Translations under genes and position numbers: made by a program | Shown here: in pieces, positions 899 to 16,587 of the stretch | Position numbering within the stretch: position 1 is the stretch's first letter | Layout of the letters: each line of letters opens with the position of its first letter | Virus genome (UHGV): UHGV-0061980 | Length of the DNA: 16,785 bases | DNA from: a virus | Direction: 5' to 3' (one strand) | The notes under the pieces: generated by a model | What the model saw: only the letters and a program-made list of their open reading frames with translations | What the model was told of the DNA's origin: nothing | Database searches by the model: none

Positions 899-1522
899 CT
901 AACGTGTGACCGCATTCAAGATATTGTCTGCAATTGACTCTTCCTTGTGGCATTGCACCACCAGAGCGTCATACAGCGGCTTAACAGTGCGTGACCAGGT
1001 GGGTTGAGTAAGGTTTGGGATTAGCATCGTTACAGCGCGATATGCGGCGCTTGCTGGCATCCTTGAATAGCCGACACCTTTGCATCTTCCGCATTCTTTC
1101 TCAACAACTCTCCCCCACTGCTCTGTTTTTGCTATATCAACCGCACGGCCTGTACCGTGACAATCTCTGCATCTTGCACCCGGCGTCGCGGCACTACGGC
1201 AATAATCCGCATAAGCGAATGTTGCGAGAACTTGCAGTACCTTTGCCTTAGTATTTCCTTCGAGCTTTGCCACACCACGGTATTTCCCCGATACCTTGTG
1301 TGCAAATTGCATCAGATAGTTGATAGCCTTTTGTTTGTCGTTCTGGCTGAGTTCGTGCTTACCACAGAATGCAGCCATTCCAAATCCGGCCTGTGATTGT
1401 GCCATCCCCATAGCAGCCATCACATCAGTACCGGAAAGAGAGTCAGAAGCCGTAGCCCGTGGTGAGTCGCTCATCATCGGGCTTTTTGGCGAATGAAATT
1501 TAGCTACGCTTTCGAGTCTCAT
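899..1522 (-). CDS. Q: Late-gene antiterminator Q (lambda-type), 207 aa
   Basis: The ORF translation MRLESVAKFHSPKSPMMSDSPRATASDS...CRDCHGTGRAVD... matches lambda Q over its full length from memory, including the zinc-binding Cys cluster. Confidence 0.95.
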   Translation of the reverse strand: MRLESVAKFHSPKSPMMSDSPRATASDSLSGTDVMAAMGMAQSQAGFGMAAFCGKHELSQNDKQKAINYLMQFAHKVSGKYRGVAKLEGNTKAKVLQVLATFAYADYCRSAATPGARCRDCHGTGRAVDIAKTEQWGRVVEKECGRCKGVGYSRMPASAAYRAVTMLIPNLTQPTWSRTVKPLYDALVVQCHKEESIADNILNAVTR

Positions 1523-1707
1523 GGTCTTCCCCTCTTGCCCTGTCTGACCATCAGGACGCCGTTAACTATTACGTGACGCTCACCTTTGCTGTCTCGGTTG
1601 TACTTGAGCACTGTTCCTCTTGCACAGGAAAGCATCCTCGCCACTTCGGTCTGACTGCCTCGTGTCTGGATAAGAAGCTCTGGTATCGTTTGAATTGTGG
1701 CGTTCAT
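1519..1707 (-). CDS. ninH: NinH-like small DNA-binding protein, 62 aa
   Basis: The core GSQTEVARMLSCARGTVLKY...HVIVNGVLMV resembles lambda NinH (...NQTEVARRLKCSRGTVRKY...AIVNDVLMV). ATGA start/stop overlaps with both neighbours; position immediately upstream of Q. Confidence 0.6.
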   Translation of the reverse strand: MNATIQTIPELLIQTRGSQTEVARMLSCARGTVLKYNRDSKGERHVIVNGVLMVRQGKRGRP

Positions 1708-2066
1708 GCGCTCTCCAGTTCGGTGATTTTTATTCCAAGCCGTCCGCCTGGTACTTTCACACCACGAATTACGCGAATGTCATCGAATTGCTCGTCGTCT
1801 TCCGCAAATCCGGCGTGGATAAGGGAATCGAGTAAACCTTTCAGGATGTTATCGAGGTCGCGGCGGCGGGAGTCTGGAACGTCTGCGATTACTTTGATGC
1901 GGAGTCGTGATTTGGTGAAAATGTCTAACTTGAGTTGGCGGATGATTTGCTGAACGTCTTTTCGGTATTTCTGGCCTTTATCGCTGATGTAGTATTGGCT
2001 TCCCCGTCTTCGCCAGTAGGTGTTCACCGACGGCGGGTATGGAAGCACAAACTGATATTCGTTCAT
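1704..2066 (-). CDS. rusA: RusA-family Holliday junction resolvase, 120 aa
   Basis: Length and motifs (PPSVNTYW...DRRRRDLDNILK...DDEQ...GGRLGIKITE) match RusA of DLP12/phage 82 type. Nin-region context. Confidence 0.85.
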   Translation of the reverse strand: MNEYQFVLPYPPSVNTYWRRRGSQYYISDKGQKYRKDVQQIIRQLKLDIFTKSRLRIKVIADVPDSRRRDLDNILKGLLDSLIHAGFAEDDEQFDDIRVIRGVKVPGGRLGIKITELESA

Positions 2067-2353
2067 GGCTTAATCTTCCCCTCCTTCAGCAGTATCGCCT
2101 GCGTCCTGATTACGCCTTCGAGGTGGCAAAGTCTGGCGTCTTTGTTGTCGAGGTTATGGGTGCGTCGGTCGATTTCATCGTGACACGCGCTACAAGCCCA
2201 TGCGCCGATCAGGTCGTCAGGCTTCATTCCCGTTCCGCAAATTCCAGCCATCCTGTAATGTGCCAGAACTGTAGTTTCAGGATTACCATTGCATACGCCG
2301 TAAATACGTACCTGGCATTCTCTGCCGCGTGCTTCTTTGCGTAGATTAGCCAT
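2063..2353 (-). CDS. ybcO: YbcO-like (DUF1364) protein, 96 aa, Cys/His-rich putative nuclease
   Basis: RGRECQVRIYGVCNGNPETTVLAH...CGTGMKPDDLIGAWACSACHDEIDRRTH closely follows E. coli DLP12 YbcO as I recall it. ATGA coupling to rusA. Confidence 0.75.
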   Translation of the reverse strand: MANLRKEARGRECQVRIYGVCNGNPETTVLAHYRMAGICGTGMKPDDLIGAWACSACHDEIDRRTHNLDNKDARLCHLEGVIRTQAILLKEGKIKP

Positions 2354-2558
2354 TTACCTTCCCTCGCAATTGAAGAATTGACTGAAGGTCTTTTTTAATA
2401 AATATGCGAGTGCGAATTGAGCAGTAGTTTTCCTTCATTCTGGCGTAGTAATAGTCTTTTCTTTGCTTAAGCTTGTTGGCATCCGCTGTCATCCAGTCTT
2501 TTACAGCAAACTTAATTAACCAGCGGTGGCAGAGATACCATTTCAGGTAATCATTCAT
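2346..2558 (-). CDS. Hypothetical nin-region protein, 70 aa
   Basis: Open reading frame with an ATGA start overlap on the NinF stop and a stop overlapping the ybcO start. No family recognised. Confidence 0.4.
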   Translation of the reverse strand: MNDYLKWYLCHRWLIKFAVKDWMTADANKLKQRKDYYYARMKENYCSIRTRIFIKKDLQSILQLRGKVNG

Positions 2559-2727
2559 CGTCTTCTTCCTCGTACATTGAACTATTCGGATCGCTCATCA
2601 GTTCTGCGCAGCAGTGCTCACACACGTGAACTTCCAGCACATGCAGCTTCTGACCGCAGTTAGCGCACGTTAAAGCTCGCTCGACGCTTTCTTTCTGGTA
2701 TTGAAGGGATTGGGATTGGCTAAGCAT
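2551..2727 (-). CDS. ninF: NinF, 58 aa (below the ORF-track size cutoff, found by manual translation)
   Basis: Manual reverse-complement translation gives [58 protein letters not shown], which matches lambda NinF from memory. Confidence 0.7.
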   Translation of the reverse strand: MLSQSQSLQYQKESVERALTCANCGQKLHVLEVHVCEHCCAELMSDPNSSMYEEEDDE

Positions 2728-3085
2728 TATTAGCGACCTGCATCATGAGAAAGACAATCATGGCAGCGCGGAGTGGGTTTTCATCTTGAGTCATATGATA
2801 TGGGGTACTATCACTGCCAACTTTTCTATGCGCTGCCTTCCATAATCCATTTTCTGGCGCTGGAATAATGCCAATTCTGTTCTCTACGATAATCGGCTCT
2901 GCGTCTGACGGGCTTTTACAGTAATCAACCGTTTTTATTGCATAACCAGTTTCGTCATCCCACTCAACACCAACGATTGATGTTCCCAACTTTGCGATTT
3001 CGCAATCTTCGGGAGCAAATCCACAGCAAATTGCCACTCGCTTGTTAATTTCAAAATCACTTAACTGTGAATAATCCATTGTCAT
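2720..3085 (-). CDS. NinX-like (DUF2591-type) nin-region protein, about 121 aa, start placed at the internal Met (MTMDYSQL...)
   Basis: The ATG at 3085 forms an ATGA overlap with the NinE stop; the longer ORF extension would overlap NinE. Family assignment is from memory of lambdoid nin regions and is uncertain. Confidence 0.45.
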
Positions 3086-3258
3086 TTCCTCGCACGATAT
3101 CTTAGCCACCGGATATCCCACAGGTGGGCTGTGTAATTGAAGGTTTTTACGTCAGATTCTTTTGGGATTAGCTTGCGTTTATTTCTGGAGCGTTTCGTTG
3201 GAAGGTATTTGCAGTTTTCGCAGATTATGTCGGTGAAACTTCGTCGCTGTCGCCTCAT
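3082..3258 (-). CDS. ninE: NinE, 58 aa
   Basis: [58 protein letters not shown] matches lambda NinE as recalled. The ATG at 3258 overlaps the methyltransferase stop. Confidence 0.75.
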
Positions 3259-3782
3259 GCCGCCCTCCTGACGCCCTGCCCGATCGCCATCAATGCCGCT
3301 TTGGATACGGTAGTAAACATCCGTCGAGGACTGATGAACGGTCGCCAAATCAGCAGCATGGAGCCTTTGCTGTTTCCCTTCTTCTCCAGCCCTGTCGATG
3401 GTTCGATAAAATTAATCCGTCCATCAGTGATAATACGAACTTCGTCAACACTCTCCAGAGCCTTGCTGAACCATCCGACTGACATATCCTCTGGCACAAG
3501 CATAACTACCGTCTGTCGCTGTTGTATGCACTGCTCAGCGGCTTTTTCCACCCACGGCCTGATATTGCTGTACGGTGGGTTATTCCAGATTGCACCGTGG
3601 CTTACCCACTCAGAATTGAGCGCGTCGTCGGCCTCAGTTAGCCAGTGAGCACACAGAGCATTTTTGTCGCTCGCTGCCGAATCCAGCCAGAATCCAAACT
3701 CAATATCCAGTGCATCAAAAAGCCAAAGCGGCGTTTGCCAGCAGTCCTTGTCGTGTGCTGGCGTATTTGATTTGATAGTCAT
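3255..3782 (-). CDS. Phage Dam-like DNA N6-adenine methyltransferase, about 175 aa
   Basis: Catalytic NPPY motif ([14 protein letters not shown]) and a [15 protein letters not shown]-terminal region typical of the phage Dam family. Start at the internal Met ([13 protein letters not shown]), which is ATGA-coupled to the ninB stop. Confidence 0.75.
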
Positions 3783-4219
3783 GCAGCCCGATCTCCCCAT
3801 CTCGCTTTCCACTCCAGAGCCAGTCTCGCTTCGTCTGACCACTTAACGCCACGCTCTGTACCGAATGCCTGTATAAGCTCTAATAGCTCCGCAAATTCGC
3901 CTACACGCATCCTGCTGGTTGACTGGCCTATTACCACAAAGCCATTCCCGGCAAGGTTAGGAACAACATCCTGCTGCTTTAATGCTGCGGTAAACACACA
4001 CTTCCAGCTTTCTGCATCCAGCCAGCGACCATGCCATTCAACCTGACGAGAGACGTCACCTAAGCAGGCCCATAGCTTCCTGTTTTGGTCTAAGCTGCGG
4101 TTGCGTTCCTGAATGGTTACTACGATTGGTTTGGTTGGGTCTGGAAGGATTTGCTGTACTGCGTGAATAGCGTTTTGCTGATGTGCTGGAGATCGAATTT
4201 CAAAGGTTAGTTTTTTCAT
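3779..4219 (-). CDS. ninB: NinB recombination protein (lambda Orf146 type), 146 aa
   Basis: MKKLTFEIRSPAHQQNAIHAVQQILPDPTKPIVVTIQERNRSLDQNRKLWACLGD... matches lambda NinB from memory. Start taken at MKKL, 6 codons inside the listed ORF. Confidence 0.9.
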   Translation of the reverse strand: MKKLTFEIRSPAHQQNAIHAVQQILPDPTKPIVVTIQERNRSLDQNRKLWACLGDVSRQVEWHGRWLDAESWKCVFTAALKQQDVVPNLAGNGFVVIGQSTSRMRVGEFAELLELIQAFGTERGVKWSDEARLALEWKARWGDRAA

Positions 4220-4232
4220 GACTTCCCTCTCC

Positions 4233-4267
4233 CCCAAATAAAAAGGCCTGCGATTACCTGCAGGCCT
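4233..4267 (-). terminator. Intrinsic terminator between the helicase gene and ninB (tR2-like, expected to be read through under N antitermination)
   Basis: Perfect 8-bp stem AGGCCTGC/GCAGGCCT with an 8-nt loop, followed on the minus-strand transcript by UUUUAUUU. Confidence 0.6.
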
Positions 4268-4292
4268 GTTATTAGCTCAGTGATGTAGATGG

Positions 4293-5669
4293 TCATACGT
4301 CAGCCCCTTGTGCATATCGTCTGCCACGCGCAGCAGGTGCATTTGATGCTGTGCAAATCTGTCTGGCTTCATCCTGGTCACATGCAACAAAGTGTCCGTT
4401 ACAGAACCGCTGGTAAACCGTACCAAGCGAGCCAAAACGGTTTTTCGTCACGATGATTTCAGCAAATGGCGCGGCGCTACTGCTCTCGTCATATACCGCT
4501 TCCCGATAGAGCATGATGATTGAGTCTGCGTCCTGTTCAATGCTTCCTGAATCACGCAAATCTGCGTTTGTCGGGCGTTTGTTTGGTCGCTTCTCAACAT
4601 CGCGCGAAAGTTGACTTAGGGAGATAACAGGCGTTTTCAGGTCTTTCGCCATCGCCTTCAGGCTTCCGGAGATGTGAGCAATTGCGAGGTCGTTGCGGTC
4701 TGCTTTCGGCTTCTCAATCAGGCCAAGATAATCCGCCATGATGAGTGACAGGTTTGGATTTTCCTGTTTGTGCCGTTCTGCGATTGATCGTATTTCTTCG
4801 ACCGATAACCGCGAGGCATCGACTACCCATACATCCAAATCTGCAAGCTGACTCATGCCGTTAGCAACACGTGCCCAGCCTTCGTCATCCATCGCTGCAG
4901 GATTTCGCAGCACACTAACCGACATCCTCCCGGCGTTGGCAATGCTTCGCTCTGCAATCTGCAATGCGCTCATTTCCATTGAGAAAATCAATACTCCGCG
5001 CCGGACGTCAGAACCAGGAATAACACGACTTGCAACGCCTTCGGCAATCTTCAGCGCCAGTTCGGTTTTCCCCATACCAGGACGAGCGGCGATTATCACC
5101 AGGTCTTCCGCGTTCATCCCTCCGGTGATGGCGTCAAGTTCTTCGATTCCGGTCTTCAGGGTATCGGACTCTTCTCCGTTCCTCAGACGCCTGTCAAGCG
5201 TGTCAGTGTAGTCAGTTATGATTTCCCCTAACCGTACAGGTTTAACCTCGTCACGGGGCTTTCTGATGGCTGAAAGACGCTTTACAAGTTCATCCATCGC
5301 CTGACTCGATGCGTCGATGGTTCCGCTCTGAATTGGTTCACGCATTTCATCCATGATTTCCAGCACCAGACGGCGGTGATAGTTATCCGCGACCATTCCG
5401 GCATATCCCTTCAGGTTTGCGGAACTCGGGCAGTTTTTGCTGGTCATCAGGATTGACGTGAAATGCTCCTCTCCGCACGCCTCGGCAACCATCAGCGCGT
5501 CGATTAGGTTTCTGTTTCGCGCCTGCTTGCGGATAACCTCGAAGGCTTTCCGGTAGAGCGGTATTGAAAACGCTTCCGGCTCAAGCGTTGCCAGAACGTC
5601 ACTGGCAATTGGTGTTAATCCACCAATCAGCAGGCCACCGATAACGCTCGCTTCGATATCCTGTTTCAT
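4293..5669 (-). CDS. DnaB-family replicative helicase (P22 gene 12-like, occupying the lambda P position), 458 aa
   Basis: Walker [10 protein letters not shown], a DnaB-like N-terminal domain and a C-terminal RecA-like core ([18 protein letters not shown]). ATGA overlap with the upstream O-like gene. Confidence 0.9.
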
Positions 5670-6613
5670 GCAATCCCCCTGTCTGCAAACTTCCCTTCCC
5701 GAACTCCCGTTAACGAATCTTCCCTCAGCAGGTAATCAAAATCTGCCGTCCAGCCCGTGTCGTTGTCTCCGAAGTAAAACGGCTTGGCCTGATGCACAAA
5801 CGCCCTGACATACGCTCTGAAACCGTCCACGTTTGGCGTTTTCAGTTGCGGGATGATTTTCTTCAGGCGGCGTTTGCGTTTCTCGTTGACCGCAACAGCG
5901 TGTGGAAGCCTGTCACCGACTTCGGTGTTGTAGGCGTTCAGGAAGGATTCGTAGTCGATTCGTTCTGCCTTGCGACGTTCAGGTTTAACCTGCCCATCGC
6001 CTCCCCCATTGGGGGGTAGGGGGGTATTATTTATATTCTTGTTAATACCTTCTTGTTCATGATGTGCGGTTGTTTGTGCGGCTTCATGTGCGCTTTCATG
6101 TGCGGCATGTACGCTGAAAGCCGCGCCATTACTGGCTTCATCATGTGCGGCATCATGTGCGGTTGTTTGTGCGGCTTCATGTGCGGGGGAATTGTCCATT
6201 TTTTGAGCGTATTCATGGTAATTTGTGATGGTGATCACACGACCTTTTTGCTTCTCTCCATCAATGGAGATCATCCCCTCTTTCACAAAAACCTGAAGCA
6301 TCCGCTCAACCTGATCACGGCTTGCCGGCTTGCCATGCCTGTCGCATAACTGAAGACCTAAATCAGCTGCTGTCACAACCAGTTGACCGGGTTGCAGATG
6401 CCATTCATGACCTTTGAAATTCGCTTTGTATGGCTTTCTGGCGGCATTCAGGAGAAGGTTTTCCCACAGGGTGCGAAGATAAACATCTTTCGCCCATGAC
6501 TGTTTCAGAATGCTCCGGTACAACGGAATGTAACCAGTTTTCTGGTTCTCCATCCTGTTGCTCCTGCGCTCGTGTGCGGCGCTGAAATCGTAGATTTTTG
6601 CTGTATTGCTCAT
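5666..6613 (-). CDS. Replication initiator, O-like / P22 gp18-like, about 315 aa, with the origin embedded in its central linker
   Basis: The N-terminus [10 protein letters not shown]... resembles the lambda O N-terminus (MTNTAKILNF). The central low-complexity His/Ala-rich linker is encoded by the iteron array. Position between cII and the helicase. Confidence 0.8.
6003..6200. repeat. Putative replication origin: array of about 8 CATGTGCG(G/C)-type iterons (roughly 6060-6196), including two ~33-bp direct repeats, next to an AT-rich tract (6025-6058) and a G/C-rich palindromic block (6003-6024)
   Basis: Repeats seen directly: TGTGCGG at about 6063, 6074, 6109, 6154, 6166, 6178 and 6190, plus TGTGCGC at about 6097. 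ATGTGCGGTTGTTTGTGCGGCTTCATGTGCG occurs twice. The layout (iterons then AT-rich tract in the direction of transcription) parallels ori-lambda inside O. Confidence 0.6.
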
Positions 6614-6615
6614 CA

Positions 6616-6888
6616 CTACCTGCCTTGACGAAAGACCTTAAGAACATCGTTAAACTGACTTACGGATATGTCTTCTTTGATCAGCTTTTCCAGAAATGCG
6701 TTTGGAATGAACGTATATCCCTCCTCTTTTGGTAGAGACGGGAGCAACGCCCTCGCCTCAGCCTTCAGAAGCTCAGTTCTGGCAACTTTCACAAAAGAGA
6801 TTTGAGTTCTTTCATCAATGGAACGAAGGAAGCGCAAACGCTTAGCTTCTTTGTGTGTATCAGGTGGATTAAAGCCTTTGTTTCGCAT
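6616..6888 (-). CDS. Hypothetical protein, 90 aa, inserted between cII and the O-like gene
   Basis: Internal ATG at 6888 is preceded by GAGGTAATTAT (a good SD); the longer ORF extension overlaps cII in another frame. Its stop overlaps the O-like start. No family recognised. Confidence 0.5.
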   Translation of the reverse strand: MRNKGFNPPDTHKEAKRLRFLRSIDERTQISFVKVARTELLKAEARALLPSLPKEEGYTFIPNAFLEKLIKEDISVSQFNDVLKVFRQGR

Positions 6889-7578: not shown

Positions 7579-8229
7579 ATGAAAACTCAATTGATGGGAG
7601 AGCGCATTCGCGCTCGGAGAAAAGAACTCAAGATCAGGCAGGCCGCACTTGGAAAGATGGTCGGCGTGTCTAATGTTGCCATATCTCAGTGGGAACGCTC
7701 TGAGACAGAGCCAAATGGAGAGAATCTTCTCGCCCTGGCTAATGCGTTGAAGTGTTCCCCTGACTATCTGATGAAAGGAGAGGAAAGTCTTTCAAACATT
7801 GCCTATCACAGTAGGCATGATCCAAGAGGGTCATACCCTCTGATTAGCTGGGTGAGCGCAGGATGCTGGATGGAAGCTGTAGAACCATATCATAAGCGTG
7901 CAATAGATAACTGGTACGATACAACCGTAGACTGTTCAGAAGATTCGTTTTGGTTGGACGTGAAGGGAGACTCAATGACGGCTCCGGCCGGTCTCAGTAT
8001 CCCTGAAGGAATGATAATACTCGTCGATCCTGAAGTAGAGCCGCGTAACGGGAAACTGGTAGTTGCAAAGCTCGAAGGAGAAAACGAGGCAACTTTCAAG
8101 AAGTTAGTTATTGATGCAGGCAGGAAGTTTCTAAAACCACTTAACCCACAATATCCGATGATCGAGATCAACGGAAACTGCAAAATCATCGGCGTAGTTG
8201 TCGATGCAAAACTAGCAAACCTTCCATAA
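7579..8229 (+). CDS. c2: Prophage repressor, P22 c2-type (LexA-like S24 peptidase C-terminal domain), 216 aa
   Basis: The translation is nearly identical to the P22 C2 repressor as recalled (QLMGERIRARRK.LKIRQAALGKMVGVSNVAISQWERSETEPNGENLLAL...). HTH N-terminal domain; autocleavage elements GDSM and the downstream Lys are present. Confidence 0.95.
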   Translation: MKTQLMGERIRARRKELKIRQAALGKMVGVSNVAISQWERSETEPNGENLLALANALKCSPDYLMKGEESLSNIAYHSRHDPRGSYPLISWVSAGCWMEAVEPYHKRAIDNWYDTTVDCSEDSFWLDVKGDSMTAPAGLSIPEGMIILVDPEVEPRNGKLVVAKLEGENEATFKKLVIDAGRKFLKPLNPQYPMIEINGNCKIIGVVVDAKLANLP

Positions 8230-8296: not shown

Positions 8297-8350
8297 ATTT
8301 AAGTTTTCTTCAAAAATACTCTTGACCATTAATTAAAGAGATCTTAAATT
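8297..8350 (+). promoter_or_regulatory. Left operator / pL region: operator palindromes at 8297-8314 and 8332-8349; pL -35 TTGACC (8322-8327), 17-bp spacer, -10 TAAATT (8345-8350)
   Basis: AATTAAAGAGATCTTAAATT closely matches the OR site AATTAAAGAACACTTAAATT. The operator overlaps the -10, and the promoter points at N. Confidence 0.7.
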
Positions 8351-8396
8351 TAAGCCATCAGCAGGACGCTGGTAGCCAAACGGAACAGATTGGCAG

Positions 8397-8437
8397 GCTC
8401 TTTAACATTGATGGGATTGTCCCGCCGAAATGCGGGA
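8397..8437 (+). promoter_or_regulatory. nutL: boxA GCTCTTTAACA (8397-8407) plus boxB hairpin TCCCGC-CGAAAT-GCGGGA (8420-8437)
   Basis: Same boxA and boxB sequences as nutR, located between pL and N. Confidence 0.6.
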
Positions 8438-8544
8438 ACCAAAGAGTAGTTGGCTTTGGGGTGACGTGAAGTGCAGCTGCACGACGGCAACTGGAAGATA
8501 AGCACCCGGCGCGTCACCGCCAAAGTCAATCATCGGAGGTCAAC

Positions 8545-8844
8545 ATGACAGTAGTCATTACATATCTGGCTGACGATAACGCCAGAAATCGCCGCAGAGC
8601 ACGCAGACAGGCTCAACGTGAACAGGCAATGCAAGAGCAGCGACTGGCGCGAAAAATTGCGCTAAAGCTCTCTGGTTGCGTCAGAGCAGATAAAGCAGCA
8701 TCACTCGGAAGCCTTCGCTGTAAGAAAGCAGAAGAAGTCGAGCATAAACAGAACCGTATTTACTACCGCAAGCCACGCAGTGAAATGGGTGTGACTTGTG
8801 TTGGTCGCCAGAAAATAAAATTAGGCAGCAAACCACTTATTTGA
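8545..8844 (+). CDS. N: Antitermination protein N (phage 21 / lambda-family type), 99 aa
   Basis: Arg-rich N-terminal motif (NARNRRRARRQAQREQ) and a C-terminus RIYYRKPRSEMGVTCVGRQKIKLGSKPLI that resembles lambda N (...GITCSGRQKIKGKSIPLI) and phage 21 N as recalled. GGAGG SD 5 nt upstream; downstream of pL/nutL. Confidence 0.85.
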   Translation: MTVVITYLADDNARNRRRARRQAQREQAMQEQRLARKIALKLSGCVRADKAASLGSLRCKKAEEVEHKQNRIYYRKPRSEMGVTCVGRQKIKLGSKPLI

Positions 8845-8855
8845 GAGGAATTAAT

Positions 8856-9479
8856 ATGTCATCAATCCGCTTAACTACGAGAATGAAAGAGGAAATCGCT
8901 CGTAACGCTTTAATTAAGTCTGGGGTTTTCACTGAACTTGAAGAAGTAACAAAGTTAAAGAACCAGCTTGCACTTGACGCCAGAGTTATTGCGTTTGGCG
9001 GTAAAAAGAAAACTGAGGAAGTGGATCAGTTATCATCCAAGTTGGTAGCTATAAGTGAAGAACTTGAAAAGATGGGATGTTCATTTTACTCATACGATGT
9101 TAGTTCTACTTCAATTTATCTGACTGTATCTGGCAGAAGGGTTGGATGGCATTCATATGGGAAAGACGGCAACGGCGAAGATATATTGCTCCCTACTCCG
9201 ACCAAAGATAAATGCATGTTTAGCGCAGAACACGAAATAACAAAAAGGTTTGATGAAATCTGCGCATTGCAACAAAAACTTGAAGCCAAGAAAAAGGATA
9301 TCGAATCAAATGTATGGGCTGCTTTGAACTCAGTCACAACAGTTAAGCGACTTATTGAAGTTTGGCCTGAAAGCAAAGAATTGCTACCAAAAGAAGCAGA
9401 TAAAGCAAGTACAGCACTTCCTGCTTTACGGGTAGAAGATTTGAATAAGATGATTGGACTTCCTTCCGAGGCCGCATAG
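8856..9479 (+). CDS. Hypothetical protein, 207 aa, first gene of a low-GC insert after N; function unknown
   Basis: ATG at 8856 preceded by GAGGAA; the start MSSIRLTTRMKEEI lies 20 codons inside the listed ORF, which otherwise overlaps N. About 38% G+C by manual count on the first 120 nt versus about 50% in N. No transmembrane-like hydrophobic stretch; no family recognised. Confidence 0.6.
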   Translation: MSSIRLTTRMKEEIARNALIKSGVFTELEEVTKLKNQLALDARVIAFGGKKKTEEVDQLSSKLVAISEELEKMGCSFYSYDVSSTSIYLTVSGRRVGWHSYGKDGNGEDILLPTPTKDKCMFSAEHEITKRFDEICALQQKLEAKKKDIESNVWAALNSVTTVKRLIEVWPESKELLPKEADKASTALPALRVEDLNKMIGLPSEAA

Positions 9480-9494
9480 TCGGCCTTTATTTTT
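9469..9494 (+). terminator. Intrinsic terminator immediately after the 207-aa gene
   Basis: Stem AGGCCG/CGGCCT with a 6-nt loop containing the TAG stop, followed by TTTATTTTT. Confidence 0.6.
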
Positions 9495-9613
9495 GGCACT
9501 AACAACAGAATAAACACTGCACTGTGTATTCATTCCAACGAGTGAATACACGGAGCAATGTCGCTCGTAACTAAACAGGAGCCGACTTGTTCTGATTATT
9601 GGAAATCTTCTTT

Positions 9614-9640
9614 GCCCTCCAGTGTGAGGGCGATTTTTTA
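9614..9640 (+). terminator. Second intrinsic terminator, directly upstream of the 122-aa gene's RBS
   Basis: Stem GCCCTC/GAGGGC with a 6-nt loop, followed by GATTTTTTA. Confidence 0.55.
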
Positions 9641-9659
9641 TCTATGAGGATATGAATAG

Positions 9660-10028
9660 ATGTCAAACATCAAAAAATACATCATTGATTACGACTGGAA
9701 AGCATCAATAGAAATTGAAATTGACCATGACGTAATGACAGAGGAAAAACTTCACCAGATTAATAATTTCTGGTCAGACTCTGAATACCGACTCAATAAA
9801 CACGGCTCTGTATTAAATGCTGTATTAATCATGCTGGCGCAACATGCTCTGCTTATAGCAATTTCAAGCGACTTAAATGCATATGGTGTTGTGTGTGAGT
9901 TCGACTGGAATGATGGAAATGGTCAGGAAGGATGGCCTCCAATGGATGGTAGTGAAGGAATAAGAATTACCGATATCGATACATCAGGAATATTTGATTC
10001 AGATGATATGACTATCAAGGCCGCCTGA
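9660..10028 (+). CDS. Hypothetical strongly acidic protein, 122 aa; function unknown
   Basis: Clean ORF with GAGGA upstream. About 22 Asp/Glu versus about 8 Lys/Arg by manual count. Very AT-rich (about 28% G+C in the first 60 nt by manual count). No family recognised. Confidence 0.6.
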   Translation: MSNIKKYIIDYDWKASIEIEIDHDVMTEEKLHQINNFWSDSEYRLNKHGSVLNAVLIMLAQHALLIAISSDLNAYGVVCEFDWNDGNGQEGWPPMDGSEGIRITDIDTSGIFDSDDMTIKAA

Positions 10029-10100
10029 GCGCGGCGTTACCGCATACCAATTACGCTTCACTCGAGGCGTTTTTCGTTATGTATAAATAAGGAGCACACC

Positions 10101-10226
10101 ATGCAATATGCCATTGCAGGGTGGCCTGTTGCTGGCTGCCCTTCCGAATCTTTACTTGAACGAATCACCAGTAAATTACGTGACGGATGGAAAAGAGTTG
10201 AGGTCTTATTATGCGCAATGAAATAG
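10101..10226 (+). CDS. cIII: CIII (lambda-type FtsH inhibitor), short 41-aa variant (below the ORF-track cutoff)
   Basis: MQYAIAGWPVAGCPSESLLERITSKLRDGWKR matches the lambda CIII N-terminus and central helix as recalled; the C-terminus diverges and is shorter. Strong SD AAGGAG upstream. Confidence 0.8.
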   Translation: MQYAIAGWPVAGCPSESLLERITSKLRDGWKRVEVLLCAMK

Positions 10227-10363
10227 CCATTAATCACCAGATGCTTCGTGCTGCACAGAACAAAGCAGTAATAGCCAGATTTATTGGTGATTCAAAAATG
10301 TGGCTTGAAGCAAATAAAGCGATGAAATCAGCTATCAACCTTCCGTGGTATCGCAGGAAATGA
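10211..10363 (+). CDS. kil: Kil-like host cell-division inhibitor, 50 aa
   Basis: Manual translation MRNEIAINHQMLRAAQNKAVIARFIGDSKMWLEANKAMKSAINLPWYRRK. The IA.FIGD.KM core resembles lambda Kil as recalled. Overlaps the cIII 3' end; same position as lambda kil. Confidence 0.5.
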   Translation: MRNEIAINHQMLRAAQNKAVIARFIGDSKMWLEANKAMKSAINLPWYRRK

Positions 10364-10444
10364 GTTTTACAGATAACTGGTCAGACGAAGAATTCATTCG
10401 TCAGATGAACAAAATGCTCAATCAGCACAAAGAACAGGAGAAAG

Positions 10445-10756
10445 ATGATGATTCTGACTCTGAATGATAAGCGTGAAATATCGCAAATAATCGCAAGTTT
10501 TACTGATGAAGATTACGAGCGAATCAACAGTGAAGTTGTTCGCCTCTGCAAACGTTGCGACCCAATAAGCGAAATGCTTCGCTCATATAAACCAGATGAA
10601 CACACTAAGGACGCTATCGACTGGCTGGAAGATGATGATTGTAACTATCAGGAAAAAGCCGCTGAATGGTTCTGGGATGCAATAACCGAAAGAGTTAAGG
10701 CTGAATATGCCTTCGCAATATTCAAACGCAGACACATTTATGGAGAAGCAGCATGA
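10445..10756 (+). CDS. Hypothetical acidic protein, 103 aa, immediately upstream of recT (the positional equivalent of lambda gam)
   Basis: AGGAG SD upstream of ATGATG; ATGA overlap with the recT start. Net acidic. No family recognised. Confidence 0.55.
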   Translation: MMILTLNDKREISQIIASFTDEDYERINSEVVRLCKRCDPISEMLRSYKPDEHTKDAIDWLEDDDCNYQEKAAEWFWDAITERVKAEYAFAIFKRRHIYGEAA

Positions 10757-11664
10757 GCAATATCGTTGAATTCGTTAAACAGCAGGAGCAGTTATTCTGC
10801 GGAGCATTGACTGAACAGACGGTGACATGGGCTAAGGAAAGCCAGTTTGCAATTCAGTATTTCCAGAAAAATGATTACCTGGCTAAAACAGCACTGGCAA
10901 ATCCAACCAGCGCACAGAACGCCATCATCAATGTTGCGGCGATCGGCATCACCTTAAACCCTGCAAGCAAACTGGCTTATCTGGTTCCGCGCGATGGCAT
11001 GGTTTGCCTTGATATCAGCTATATGGGATTGCTCCATATTGCAATGGAGTCTGGTGTTATCTCATGGGGTCAGGCAAAACTTGTTCATGCTAACGATACC
11101 TATGAGTCAAACGGGCTTGATAAAGCACCAACCCATAAATACAACGCCTTCGGTGATCGTGGTGATATCGTTGGCGTTTACTGCACAGTTAAGACGCCAG
11201 CAGGTGATTATCTAACGGAAGAGATGAGTCTGGCTGAAATTGAGGCTGTAAGGAAAACAAGCAAGGCAGCATTCAGCGATAAAGGACCATGGGTAAATCA
11301 CTGGAATGAGATGGCGCGAAAGACGGTCGTAAAGCGTGCAAGCAAGTATTGGCCTAAGGCATCACGTCTTGATAGTGCTATTCACGTACTAAACGAAGAA
11401 GAAGGTGTGTGGACTGAACCAGTTATGCCGCATAAATCAGAGGAAGATATCCGCGAAGATGAACGGAAACGCCAGCAGGAAATAACGGAAAAAGCACAAC
11501 TTCTTTGTGATGAAATGGCTCAGGCTGAAAACATGGATGATTTGAAGAGATATTTTGCAGAAGCATATCGCCTGACATCTGGAATGAAATTGCAGCAGAA
11601 CGTACAAGCCATTTACATAGAATGCAAAGCGAAACTGGAGGTTGCCAGTGAGCAAACTATATGA
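10753..11664 (+). CDS. recT: RecT-family single-strand annealing recombinase, 303 aa
   Basis: The motif GPWVNHWNEMARKTVVKRASKYWP matches the conserved RecT region (Rac RecT GPWVTHWEEMAKKTAIRR...KYLP as recalled). Size and position fit the phage recombination module. Confidence 0.85.
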   Translation: MSNIVEFVKQQEQLFCGALTEQTVTWAKESQFAIQYFQKNDYLAKTALANPTSAQNAIINVAAIGITLNPASKLAYLVPRDGMVCLDISYMGLLHIAMESGVISWGQAKLVHANDTYESNGLDKAPTHKYNAFGDRGDIVGVYCTVKTPAGDYLTEEMSLAEIEAVRKTSKAAFSDKGPWVNHWNEMARKTVVKRASKYWPKASRLDSAIHVLNEEEGVWTEPVMPHKSEEDIREDERKRQQEITEKAQLLCDEMAQAENMDDLKRYFAEAYRLTSGMKLQQNVQAIYIECKAKLEVASEQTI

Positions 11665-12130
11665 AATTGCCAATGAATACGCAAAATTGATGGATTCAGA
11701 TTTAGAACCAGAGATGATTGCTGACACAATAGAAGGCATGGAAGGAGAATTTACCGATAAAATAGAACAACTTCTTTCCGTCATTAAAAATGAATCTGGT
11801 TATGCCGAACGCCTCAAGGAAGAGGCAAAGTCACTGAATGAGCGAGCCGCAGTAATTCAAAATAAGATTGACAGCATCAAATCATATATAGCGTCATCGC
11901 TTGAAATGGTTGGCAAGAAAAATATTCGAGCAGGTATTCACCAGGTAACAATCCGCAAACCGTCAGAAATTGTAGAAATAATCGACTCAAGCGCCCTTCC
12001 TCCTGAATACGTTGAGTTTGAAACGACAATTAAAGCCGACAAACTGGCAATCAAGCACCAACTAAAAGCAGGAATAAATATTCCCGGTGCTCAACTCAAG
12101 GTTGGGAAACCTTCACTTCTTATCAAATAA
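11648..12130 (+). CDS. Gp157-like (Siphovirus Gp157 family) protein, about 160 aa; GTG start
   Basis: GGAGG sits 6 nt upstream of the GTG at 11648; the listed ORF begins at an upstream TTG. Coiled-coil-like sequence of a size and position (directly after recT/erf) typical of this family; assignment from memory only. Confidence 0.45.
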   Translation: MSKLYEIANEYAKLMDSDLEPEMIADTIEGMEGEFTDKIEQLLSVIKNESGYAERLKEEAKSLNERAAVIQNKIDSIKSYIASSLEMVGKKNIRAGIHQVTIRKPSEIVEIIDSSALPPEYVEFETTIKADKLAIKHQLKAGINIPGAQLKVGKPSLLIK

Positions 12131-13475: not shown

Positions 13476-14050
13476 GCGAAATTAATTACCAGGCACTGCG
13501 TGAGGCGGCGGAACGTGCAATTCCAGCAATGGAACGCCTGTTAATGTTGCCAGCTGATGATGATTTGATAAGTGAACAGGAACTTAAAGATTACGGTGTG
13601 GATATTGATGCGCTCAACGCCTTCAAATTTCTGGCCGGACCAGAAACCGTGCTGGCGCTGCTGGATGAACGGGAAAGAAACCAGCAATACATAAAACGCC
13701 GCGATCAGGAGAACGAGGAAATTGCGCTAACGGTAGGGAAGCTGCGTGTTGAGCTGGAAGCCGCAGAGAAGCGCATTGCAGAACTGGAAACACGGGAAAT
13801 AAAACCAGCCAAAGGTGAAGTTCTTGTCGTTGTTTCTGGTTTTACTGGTTGCGGAAAAAGCGCCATTGCCGGGGAAATAGAAATTGCGATGAAGGCTATT
13901 GGTGTACCGGTTCAGAGGACTAATGGCGATGCGGAAAAGCGCATGACAGGAGCTGACTGGCTGACAGCGATTGAGATGTACAAACCAACAGTGCGCATCG
14001 TGGAAGTTAATGTGCCACGCGCCGCTGGCATCAAGGAGGAGTCTGAGTGA
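13472..14050 (+). CDS. Ea22-like (Ead/Ea22 family) protein, 192 aa, with a C-terminal Walker-A-like motif
   Basis: [14 protein letters not shown]... and LALLDERERNQQYIKRRDQENEEIALTVGKLRVELE match lambda Ea22 as recalled. GGAGG SD before the GTG start. The C-terminus contains VLVVVSGFTGCGKS (G-x4-GKS). Confidence 0.7.
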   Translation: MSEINYQALREAAERAIPAMERLLMLPADDDLISEQELKDYGVDIDALNAFKFLAGPETVLALLDERERNQQYIKRRDQENEEIALTVGKLRVELEAAEKRIAELETREIKPAKGEVLVVVSGFTGCGKSAIAGEIEIAMKAIGVPVQRTNGDAEKRMTGADWLTAIEMYKPTVRIVEVNVPRAAGIKEESE

Positions 14051-14541
14051 TGGTCATTTCACCTATAACGCTGAAAGCGGCGCAGGAATTTATCGCACAG
14101 CACCACCGACACAATAAACCACCAGTGGGGCATAAATTCAGCATTGGTCTGAGAAATAATGCCGGAGAATTGATAGGTGTGGCGACAGCTGGTCGACCTG
14201 TTGCACGACATTTCGACGATGGATTAACGCTTGAAGTAAATCGCACATGTACCACAGGAGAACGCAACGCTAACAGCGCGCTTTATGGTGCTATCTGGCG
14301 GGCAGCAAAAGCTATGGGTTATCAACGTTGTATTACGTACACCCAGGCAGATGAATCAGGAGCATCTCTTCGCGCAGTTGGTTTTGTTCGTGTGAAAGAG
14401 CTTCCTCCAAGAAAAAGCTGGGCGGAATCAAGCGTCGCCCTGCGGAGTAAACGCGATCCGGTCGGAAACGGTGGTATTCCTCGTGTGCTCTGGGAAATCA
14501 GGAGAATGAGTACCACTGGCATTGGCATCAAAGGAGGGTGA
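14050..14541 (+). CDS. Conserved-looking hypothetical protein, about 163 aa (HHRH motif; possibly an acetyltransferase-like fold, unverified)
   Basis: ATG at 14050 overlaps the Ea22-like stop (TGATG); AGGAGG upstream. Fold assignment is a guess from motif spacing only. Confidence 0.5.
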   Translation: MVISPITLKAAQEFIAQHHRHNKPPVGHKFSIGLRNNAGELIGVATAGRPVARHFDDGLTLEVNRTCTTGERNANSALYGAIWRAAKAMGYQRCITYTQADESGASLRAVGFVRVKELPPRKSWAESSVALRSKRDPVGNGGIPRVLWEIRRMSTTGIGIKGG

Positions 14542-15640: not shown

Positions 15641-15850
15641 ATGGCTATTGCCGCAAGTTACACCATGCATCTCTATTGTGATTGTCGCCAGTGTACGGAA
15701 GGTGTATATCCAGTGCCAGACTTCGGTGAGTATATCGGTACGTCATGGTCTGGTTGTGCAAAAGAGGCCCGTAAAGACGGGTGGCGAATAAGCAAAGACA
15801 AAACACGTACTTTTGCGCCCGGGCATAAAGTTTTGAGGATTAACACATGA
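15641..15850 (+). CDS. Small Cys-rich hypothetical protein, 69 aa
   Basis: The ATG at 15641 lies 1 nt after the upstream stop; its stop overlaps the next start (ATGA). Cys pattern C-x-C-x2-C...C suggests possible metal binding. Confidence 0.4.
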   Translation: MAIAASYTMHLYCDCRQCTEGVYPVPDFGEYIGTSWSGCAKEARKDGWRISKDKTRTFAPGHKVLRINT

Positions 15851-16579
15851 CCACTATTACCAAAGAACGTATTGAATTGTTCATTAAAAATCCGCTTGAA
15901 AACGGGCTTACTCGTGGCGAACAAATGGAACTAGCACGAATTGCACTGGCATCACTGGAACGCGAACAGATTCGCCACGAGCATGCCAAATGGTCTGACT
16001 CCACATTTGGCTGCGTTGGCCCCATTGGTCCACTGAAACACCTCTCAAAAGAGGCACTGGAAGCCGCAGCCGAACCAGACGATCTTAGCGAGTGGGCTGA
16101 TATGCAGTTTCTGTTGTGGGATGCACAGCGCCGTGCTGGCATCAGCGATGCTGAAATTACCGTTGCTATGGAAGATAAATTGAAGATCAACATGGAGCGC
16201 CAGTGGCCTGAGCCAAAAGATGGTGAGCCTCGCTTGCACATTAAAGAACCCGGCAACTCTCCGGTAATTCCGGATGGTTTATCCACGGTATGCGCTGAGG
16301 CTTATCAGGTTGTAGGAGTTATGGCAGATGCGCTTGGTGTATTCGGTGATGCAGCAGTACAGAAAGTTCTGGATAACCTGTCACAGCAAAAACTTGTTCA
16401 CAGAGATGTGCTGCCGTTCTCGCTTCCGGTAACTCCGGATGGTTGGGTTATGGTTCCTAAACAGGTAACGCCGGAAATCAGCAACGCGATAAACGTTGTG
16501 GGTCAACGCTGTACATGCGGAAATTGCTCTCAGCGGTTGTGGGATTTATTACTCGACGCCACACAGCAAGGAGTTAACC

Positions 16580-16587
<8 letters not shown>
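15847..16587 (+). CDS. MazG-like nucleotide pyrophosphohydrolase-domain protein (DUF550-like dATP/dGTP diphosphohydrolase type), 246 aa
   Basis: The central region HLSKEALEAAAEPDDLSEWADMQFLLWDAQRRAGISDAEITVAMEDKLKINMER fits the MazG-type E-x2-E ... E-x2-D signature. GAGGA SD upstream. Confidence 0.55.

Follow-up and report, generated by a model that had tools for sequence, protein, structure and literature searches.

Genes between N and cIII

The DNA analysed here, virus genome UHGV-0061980 (16,785 nucleotides (nt), hereafter the window), holds the immunity and early region of an Escherichia coli lambdoid prophage, with its plus strand running in the direction of pL. The leftward operon reads N (8545-8844), a gene of the Nmad5 family (8856..9479, plus strand, 207 residues), ea10 (9660..10028, plus strand, 122 residues), cIII, kil, RecT, Gp157 and more accessory genes. 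The two genes that follow N are the subject of this analysis. An earlier note, made from the letters alone, had read them as an undescribed, AT-rich two-gene insert with a candidate role in exclusion or counter-defence. Both open reading frames (ORFs) lie where that note placed them, and both are genuine genes because they match family hidden Markov models (HMMs) over their full length and, for the first, because close copies are under purifying selection (ratio of nonsynonymous to synonymous substitution, dN/dS, 0.33; 58 of the 60 unique sequences are intact). Neither is undescribed. Both are found in Pfam (PF18757, Nmad5, and PF10800, DUF2528), are routinely named by PGAP in RefSeq, and occur in cultured phages (lambda, mEp235 and Shiga toxin (Stx) phages). 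Here the leftward early (pL) operon has an ordinary mosaic joint, not a two-gene cargo module: relative to lambda, only the Nmad5 gene has been swapped in, where it takes the place of sieB-orf28-ral.

By its sequence the first gene belongs to Nmad5, a large phage family of which it is a typical stand-alone member. The PF18757 HMM matches the protein at profile positions 1-206 of 206 (E 1.2e-71, 241.5 bits against a cutoff of 27), phrog_1965 matches it with E 6e-84, and the family motif WPE..ELLP...LPAL.V.DLN..IGLP is present. PGAP and RefSeq call the product 'Nmad5 family putative nucleotide modification protein'. The gene starts at an ATG 11 nt past the N stop codon, with a GAGG Shine-Dalgarno sequence 7 nt upstream; a longer, TTG-initiated version of 227 residues is not the gene, since the homologues all start at the ATG (MSSIRLT). 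An antisense ORF of 133 residues (9116-9517) was considered as a sieB-like gene and rejected, as it matches no family and its composition resembles antisense noise. Copies occur in 211 of 5,426 complete E. coli genomes, with an identity given as 94-100% at the nucleotide level and also as 97-100%, and close copies are also carried by phage mEp235 and by Stx1a and Stx2a phages. The family as a whole comprises 2,313 clusters at 50% identity (E <= 1e-3), most of them stand-alone proteins of about 200 residues. Across a lineage of E. coli O121:H19 Stx2a prophages (e.g. NZ_CP022407) the gene is split by an IS3-family element, and it is therefore dispensable there. Relatives such as mEp235_037, HK244 gene 01 and the RefSeq E. 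coli proteins share both the position after N, or after N and Nun, and the C-terminal motif. Whereas the closest copies lead straight to cIII, the gene in the window is followed by a small-RNA spacer and ea10, which is the minority order (11 of 65 loci).

The second gene is phage lambda's own ea10, with the protein unchanged. In a direct comparison with NC_001416, Ea10 is identical to lambda NP_040621 at 122 of 122 residues, and the DNA differs at two nucleotides, both synonymous. The protein matches DUF2528 with 160.6 bits (cutoff 22, E 2e-47), the family name under which lambda ea10 is listed in a lambda essentiality study (PMC10695390). The statement that neither gene could be assigned to a lambda function is thus wrong for this one. 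In lambda, Ea10 is a non-essential, abundantly made early protein that carries a legacy 'putative single-stranded DNA-binding' label and has no established function (PMC10695390, PMC3961180, PMC3224144); the copy in the window would retain whatever non-essential early role lambda's Ea10 has. It is acidic, as had been noted before (22 D/E against 8 K/R, isoelectric point 4.28). The idea that this acidity marks a DNA mimic received no support from fold comparison, and the protein showed no likeness in structure or sequence to a known mimic such as Ocr or ArdA. The structure model (predicted local distance difference test, pLDDT, 92.5; predicted template modelling score, pTM, 0.84) shows two β strands, four α helices and a further β strand, in that order. 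Sequence and profile searches of the PDB with Ea10 returned nothing meaningful. One weak lead is that Ea10, a neighbour of the FtsH inhibitor cIII, could act on the HflKC-FtsH complex as a soluble, SPFH-like protein; when Ea10 is compared by hhalign with HflC and HflK of E. coli, the probability is 0.1%.

No further family could be attached to either protein. Nmad5 and DUF2528 are the sole family matches in scans of Pfam, PHROG and PADLOC, which show no homology to Ral or SieB, and scans of PADLOC and NCBIfam with Nmad5, Ea10 and two neighbours gave no match. PDB sequence and profile searches with the Nmad5 protein yielded nothing meaningful, and a BFVD structure search with it found unannotated Nmad5 relatives only.

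The lambda backbone and the cargo slot

The case for a mosaic joint rests on a direct alignment with lambda. Window positions 9482-10193 correspond to lambda 34082-33371 without gaps over 712 nt, with 12 mismatches (98.3% identity), and this segment holds two terminators identical to those in lambda's tL2 region, the spacer of the small RNA PreS/LPR1, ea10 and the beginning of cIII with its thermosensor. The junction falls at 9481/9482, so that lambda homology opens 2 nt past the Nmad5 stop codon and 5 nt from the end of ral in lambda; three substitutions (9499, 9500 and 9503) lie just past it. The right edge is at about 10194, inside cIII, and because lambda-type sequence stops there, cIII in the window has 41 residues. 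Lambda and the window share the order terminator, small-RNA spacer, terminator, ea10, terminator, cIII, together with the same cIII thermosensor, and ea10 stands as in lambda, directly upstream of cIII and downstream of a terminator and the spacer. Beyond about 10194 the window carries a kil of another type; there is otherwise no difference of substance around ea10. The second gene of the supposed insert, the terminators that flank it and the spacer before it are therefore lambda backbone, at 98% nucleotide identity.

Three intrinsic terminators on the plus strand punctuate this backbone. The first downstream of pL, found by terminator scan, lies at 9468..9497 (hairpin 9468-9487); its hairpin overlaps the Nmad5 stop codon, and the lambda-like sequence supplies the right arm and the T-run. 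The second, a GCCCTC hairpin followed by T6 at 9612..9641 (hairpin 9612-9633), has an exact copy in the tL2 region of lambda, and the third, between ea10 and cIII at 10053..10078 (hairpin 10053-10070), is likewise copied exactly in lambda. The scan calls four terminators in the region, not above the shuffled expectation of 2.4 +/- 1.6. The earlier note had the insert bracketed by terminators in a classic moron arrangement. The hairpins downstream are indeed present, but none lies in the 11 nt between N and the Nmad5 gene, nor anywhere before 9468, and by consensus scan the gene has no promoter of its own. Of the features of a moron, a downstream terminator and an atypical base composition are found; an own promoter and an upstream terminator are not.

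The spacer (9504..9643, plus strand) is 100% identical to lambda 34060-33921, the spacer between ral and ea10. That part of lambda is where a RIL-seq study of Hfq placed LPR1/PreS, an Hfq-dependent small RNA of the lytic cycle; the RNA is about 88 nt long, is processed to about 68 nt, has its 3' end at tL2a, and activates translation of dnaN (bioRxiv 10.1101/2024.10.31.621285). In the window the 88-nt form would have its inferred ends at about 9554 and 9641, if it stops at the 9612-9633 terminator. The spacer RNA is strongly structured (fold z-score -5.2). Rfam holds no model for PreS/LPR1, and the spacer gives no Rfam match. An AgvB-type anti-small-RNA, suggested by AACAACA and AAACAC motifs in the spacer, was dropped in favour of PreS/LPR1 given the identity to lambda and the lack of an Rfam match. 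Just 5' of the presumed small-RNA body stands a perfect 14-bp hairpin (9522-9553, plus strand; CUGUGUAUUCAUUC...GAGUGAAUACACGG), which is kept in lambda and might be a processing site of the small RNA. At the far end of the backbone, the mRNA thermoregulator of cIII (10088..10146, plus strand) is recognised by Rfam model RF01804, Lambda_thermo, with 88.5 bits and E 8e-21, and cIII itself runs from 10101 to 10226 on the plus strand, a 126-nt homologue of which is called CIII by PGAP.

Base composition does not delimit the pair. Both genes are low in G+C (Nmad5 gene 40.1%, ea10 38.2%, against 48.0% in N and 47.1% in the window), as the earlier note observed, although its values were off: the first gene has 40% rather than 38%, the first 120 nt of ea10 32.5% rather than 28%, and N 48% rather than 50%. 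At 39.6%, the 1173-nt stretch covered by that note is near the window's lowest for its size (minimum 39.2%, mean 47.1%, standard deviation 3.5%). The profile is not uniform, but the AT-rich tract extends to about 12.9 kb, through kil (40.5%), orf103 (41.7%) and gp157 (39.5%). Since it continues past both genes, low G+C delimits no two-gene insert.

The earlier note was right about a variable cargo slot, a real site of exchange between N and the conserved PreS/ea10 segment in which exclusion and anti-restriction genes travel, though in the window it holds the first gene only. Comparison of this junction across related prophages confirms that the cargo varies. Where other E. coli prophages share the ea10-cIII-kil-gam-bet-exo backbone, the slot is filled by sieB, ral and a 140-residue ORF, by sieB and ral, by sieB alone, or by an 83-residue ORF; in Nmad5-bearing prophages it can hold ral and Nmad5, or Nmad5 and an extra gene of about 0.5 kb. 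The latter (156 residues, no Pfam match; e.g. positions 4688-5158 of locus L008) separates Nmad5 from the PreS spacer in about 15 of the 60 close loci. Upstream of Nmad5, ral is present in 10 of the 78 close loci that have at least 900 bp of upstream sequence.

Lambda's sieB-orf28-ral occupies the same slot, between N and the conserved spacer, and like Nmad5 consists of swappable, accessory, non-essential genes. There the likeness ends. Nmad5 has no sequence or fold similarity to them, and ral can co-occur with it. SieB is a membrane protein encoded on the opposite strand, whereas Nmad5 is read in the pL direction, has no promoter-like site of its own, and is soluble: as the earlier note had held, it lacks a membrane segment (maximum 19-residue hydropathy 0.61) and is predicted to be helical in its N-terminal part.

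Counts of co-occurrence show that Nmad5 and ea10 assort independently. The segment with PreS and ea10 occurs in 2,250 E. coli genomes (at 80% coverage or more in 1,459) and Nmad5 in 211, with the two contiguous in 56. Among 65 close Nmad5 loci in IMG/VR that have at least 1.5 kb of downstream sequence, the PreS spacer follows in 60 and ea10 in 11. A prophage with a nucleotide-identical Nmad5 copy (NZ_CP069445) and phage mEp235 both read N, a Nun-like gene, Nmad5 and cIII, and lack ea10. The apparent two-gene module is thus a by-product of lambdoid mosaicism, made of ordinary and already catalogued sequence.

Expression and possible role of Nmad5

The Nmad5 gene is likely transcribed with N, because it begins 11 nt from N with neither a promoter-like site nor a terminator in front of it. 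A consensus scan finds one plus-strand promoter-like site upstream of the two genes, a pL-like candidate (TTGACC, 17 nt, TAAATT) at 8322..8350, between the cI-like repressor gene (7579-8229, plus strand) and N, and none from 8350 to 10366. N itself (8545..8844, plus strand, 99 residues) is identified by an N-like match to phrog_271 (E 4e-36); its match to Pfam N_peptide is weak, and its homologues are called N peptide by PGAP. Nmad5, which has its own ribosome-binding site, would accordingly be an immediate-early lytic gene on the same pL transcript as N; that transcript would stop at the first terminator (9468-9497), and Nmad5 would not be a moron expressed in the lysogen. The same position, first gene after the repressor or N, is found in Serratia and Providencia prophages whose Nmad5 proteins are 42-47% identical, and it recurs in five to six more Nmad5 clusters.

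An AlphaFold (AF2) model built from a 22-sequence alignment (pLDDT 85, pTM 0.70) places three long helices at residues 8-72, a small β region at 86-121, a long helix at 127-158, short helices and, at residues 183-207, a C-terminal tail of low confidence. The predicted fold matches no solved enzyme. The tail (window 9402-9476; LPAL.V.DLN..IGLP) is better conserved than any other part of the family's proteins. In 48 diverse members (26-40% identity) eight columns are invariant, seven of them within the C-terminal 45 residues, and no catalytic-type His, Asp or Cys is among the eight. Close relatives share an invariant W170, P171, E172, L176, P178, N197, G201 and P203; of these, W, P, E, L, P and N are kept in all 48 diverse members. 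Such a pattern typifies a docking motif, not an active site, and suggests a conserved partner.

The genomic company of the family points to DNA metabolism. In about 20 of 78 diverse viral loci (9-11 of 32 Nmad5 clusters) the gene order is a 297-residue ORF, a DUF2800 PD-(D/E)XK nuclease, an Enc34-type single-stranded DNA-binding protein, Nmad5 and a family-A DNA polymerase; an example of this replication operon spans 1251-6764 of locus L097, one of about 20 such loci among L094-L173. Another group of diverse loci has Nmad5 as first gene of the pL operon, as in the window, just behind a cI-like repressor in 20 loci and an N peptide in 10. The N4-like phage Pollock reads PolA, ThyA, Nmad5, an N4 gp42-like PD-(D/E)XK protein and primase, and Pseudomonas phage Amjad_SA reads a DUF3799 nuclease, Nmad5 and AAA_24. 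In Yuavirus LKO4 the order is a 5-hydroxymethyldeoxyuridine (5-hmdU) DNA kinase, Nmad5, a pyrimidine hydroxymethylase, three more genes and DNA pol I.

These observations suggest that Nmad5 would be a non-catalytic accessory of phage DNA metabolism, serving replication, recombination or, in some phages, post-replicative base modification, and that it would act via protein-protein contacts, plausibly through the conserved C-terminal tail. An enzymatic role is improbable, as is one in superinfection exclusion. Taken whole, a lambdoid mosaic joint with a pL-driven Nmad5 that has an accessory role in DNA metabolism is the account we consider fairly probable; its mechanistic part, a non-catalytic early accessory working through protein contacts, is a tentative proposal that could easily be wrong. 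Several points weigh against it. The link to replication and recombination is guilt by association, and no structural match assigns an activity. The lambdoid Nmad5 is not adjacent to replication genes, and its slot otherwise holds sieB and ral. The promoter and terminator calls that place it under pL are consensus scans, not transcript data. The results from Dhillonvirus described below agree no less well with an activity directed at the host or at its defences (PMC11846954), and a weak Mom-like match, a pyrophosphohydrolase and Dam in the window leave room for a role related to modification.

The sole experimental paper on the family ties it to a defence system (PMC11846954). Dhillonvirus mutants that escape Tmn carry a K to E change in nmad5; reverting the change brings Tmn sensitivity back, deletion of the gene gives no escape, and the gene could not be cloned, apparently because of toxicity (PMC11846954). 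The Dhillonvirus protein and that of the M6-like Yuavirus share the Pfam domain with the window protein, to which their C-terminal 85-100 residues are 32-35% identical. Their contexts are absent from the window: the Dhillonvirus protein has 381 residues, with an extra N-terminal part, and is encoded among head genes, and the Yuavirus gene adjoins a 5-hmdU DNA kinase. The K296E / K216E escape site of Dhillonvirus cannot be placed on the window Nmad5, as the local alignment is too loose.

In the strongest competitor, Nmad5 alone is an immediate-early counter-defence or host-takeover protein that binds and neutralises or evades a component of host immunity or a nuclease. Such a protein would explain why the gene shares a variable slot with sieB and ral, and it would suit the immediate-early position beside N, the Tmn-escape mutation with its lack of escape on deletion, the toxicity on cloning (PMC11846954), and a conserved, low-confidence tail that suggests binding to a conserved partner. 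In the Tmn study, however, the protein behaved as something sensed or altered rather than as a demonstrated inhibitor (PMC11846954). PADLOC gives no match, and Nmad5 resembles neither Ral nor SieB nor any inhibitor of solved structure. Many unrelated phages carry the gene in replication operons between the single-stranded DNA-binding protein and the polymerase, which is atypical for anti-defence, and the wider context consists of replication and recombination modules, not defence islands. The presence of ral in 10 of 78 close loci means that Nmad5 is no simple ral replacement, and its co-occurrence with lambda Gam (6 of 46) and Abc2 (33 of 46) rules it out as a simple substitute for these known RecBCD inhibitors. 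The role in exclusion or counter-defence proposed by the earlier note draws on the slot and the Tmn link for Nmad5; counter-defence is unproven, and we regard this reading as somewhat unlikely.

A further reading, which would make Nmad5 a widespread and unrecognised immediate-early class whose tail docks on a conserved DNA-replication or repair component of host or phage, is unlikely. Were it true, docking by the tail would explain at once the placement in operons with polymerase, single-stranded DNA-binding protein and nuclease, the toxicity and the Tmn-escape locus, and Nmad5 would then determine defence sensing as well as assist replication.

Less still can be said for a role of Nmad5 in a pathway of DNA base modification by which phage DNA is marked, be it as an enzyme or as another component. 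The family owes its name to the thymidine hypermodification cassette of the M6-like Yuavirus, in which its copy lies beside the 5-hmdU DNA kinase (PMC9476957), and the window has genes for Dam, for a weak Mom-like protein and for a dATP/dGTP pyrophosphohydrolase. Yet the window lacks a 5-hmdU kinase, a hydroxymethylase and an aGPT-pyrophosphorylase, and the neighbours of its Nmad5 are N and the lambda spacer with ea10. Most family members found sit in phages without such cassettes. Association with modification genes is a contextual trait, not required for membership by sequence. The fold is not enzyme-like, no catalytic residue set is conserved, and the Mom-like match is under the Pfam threshold and absent from the prophage with the identical Nmad5. 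We judge this reading improbable.

A single undescribed module for exclusion or counter-defence, made of both genes and with the acidic 122-residue protein as a DNA mimic, is extremely unlikely: adjacency, shared low G+C, the acidity of Ea10 and the accessory location speak for it, but it is largely refuted by the co-occurrence counts, the second gene is lambda ea10 and has lambda sequence on its flanks, the genes are kept apart by two terminators and a small-RNA region, and Ea10 is non-essential with no restriction phenotype reported (PMC10695390).

The preferred account of a mosaic joint with an accessory Nmad5 leaves an annotation gap in view, which concerns a very large family, encoded at an immediate-early place in E. 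coli prophages that include those for Shiga toxin and tied to Tmn by a single experimental link, and Ea10, an abundant lambda early protein discovered decades ago. A function for either would be useful to have; the window offers no special handle on them.

Other features of the window

The minus strand of the window carries a lambda-type holin fragment, a Q-like antiterminator, nin genes, Dam methylase, a DnaB-type helicase, an O-like protein, cII and cro. On the plus strand, RecT and Siphovirus Gp157, the latter with the PHROG label 'Mu Gam-like end protection', form a recombination module at 10753-12130, downstream of which no exonuclease gene is recognisable. Three genes concern nucleotides or their modification: the weak Mom-like protein (14047-14541, plus strand; 23 bits, under the Pfam threshold), the dATP/dGTP pyrophosphohydrolase domain protein (15847-16587, plus strand; E 8e-42) and Dam methylase (3255-3842, minus strand; E 9e-65). 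No linkage of these three to Nmad5 was found. In the O-like replication protein (5666-6616, minus strand) a His/Ala-rich stretch is duplicated, with a 10-residue string present twice; this duplication probably overlies origin repeats.

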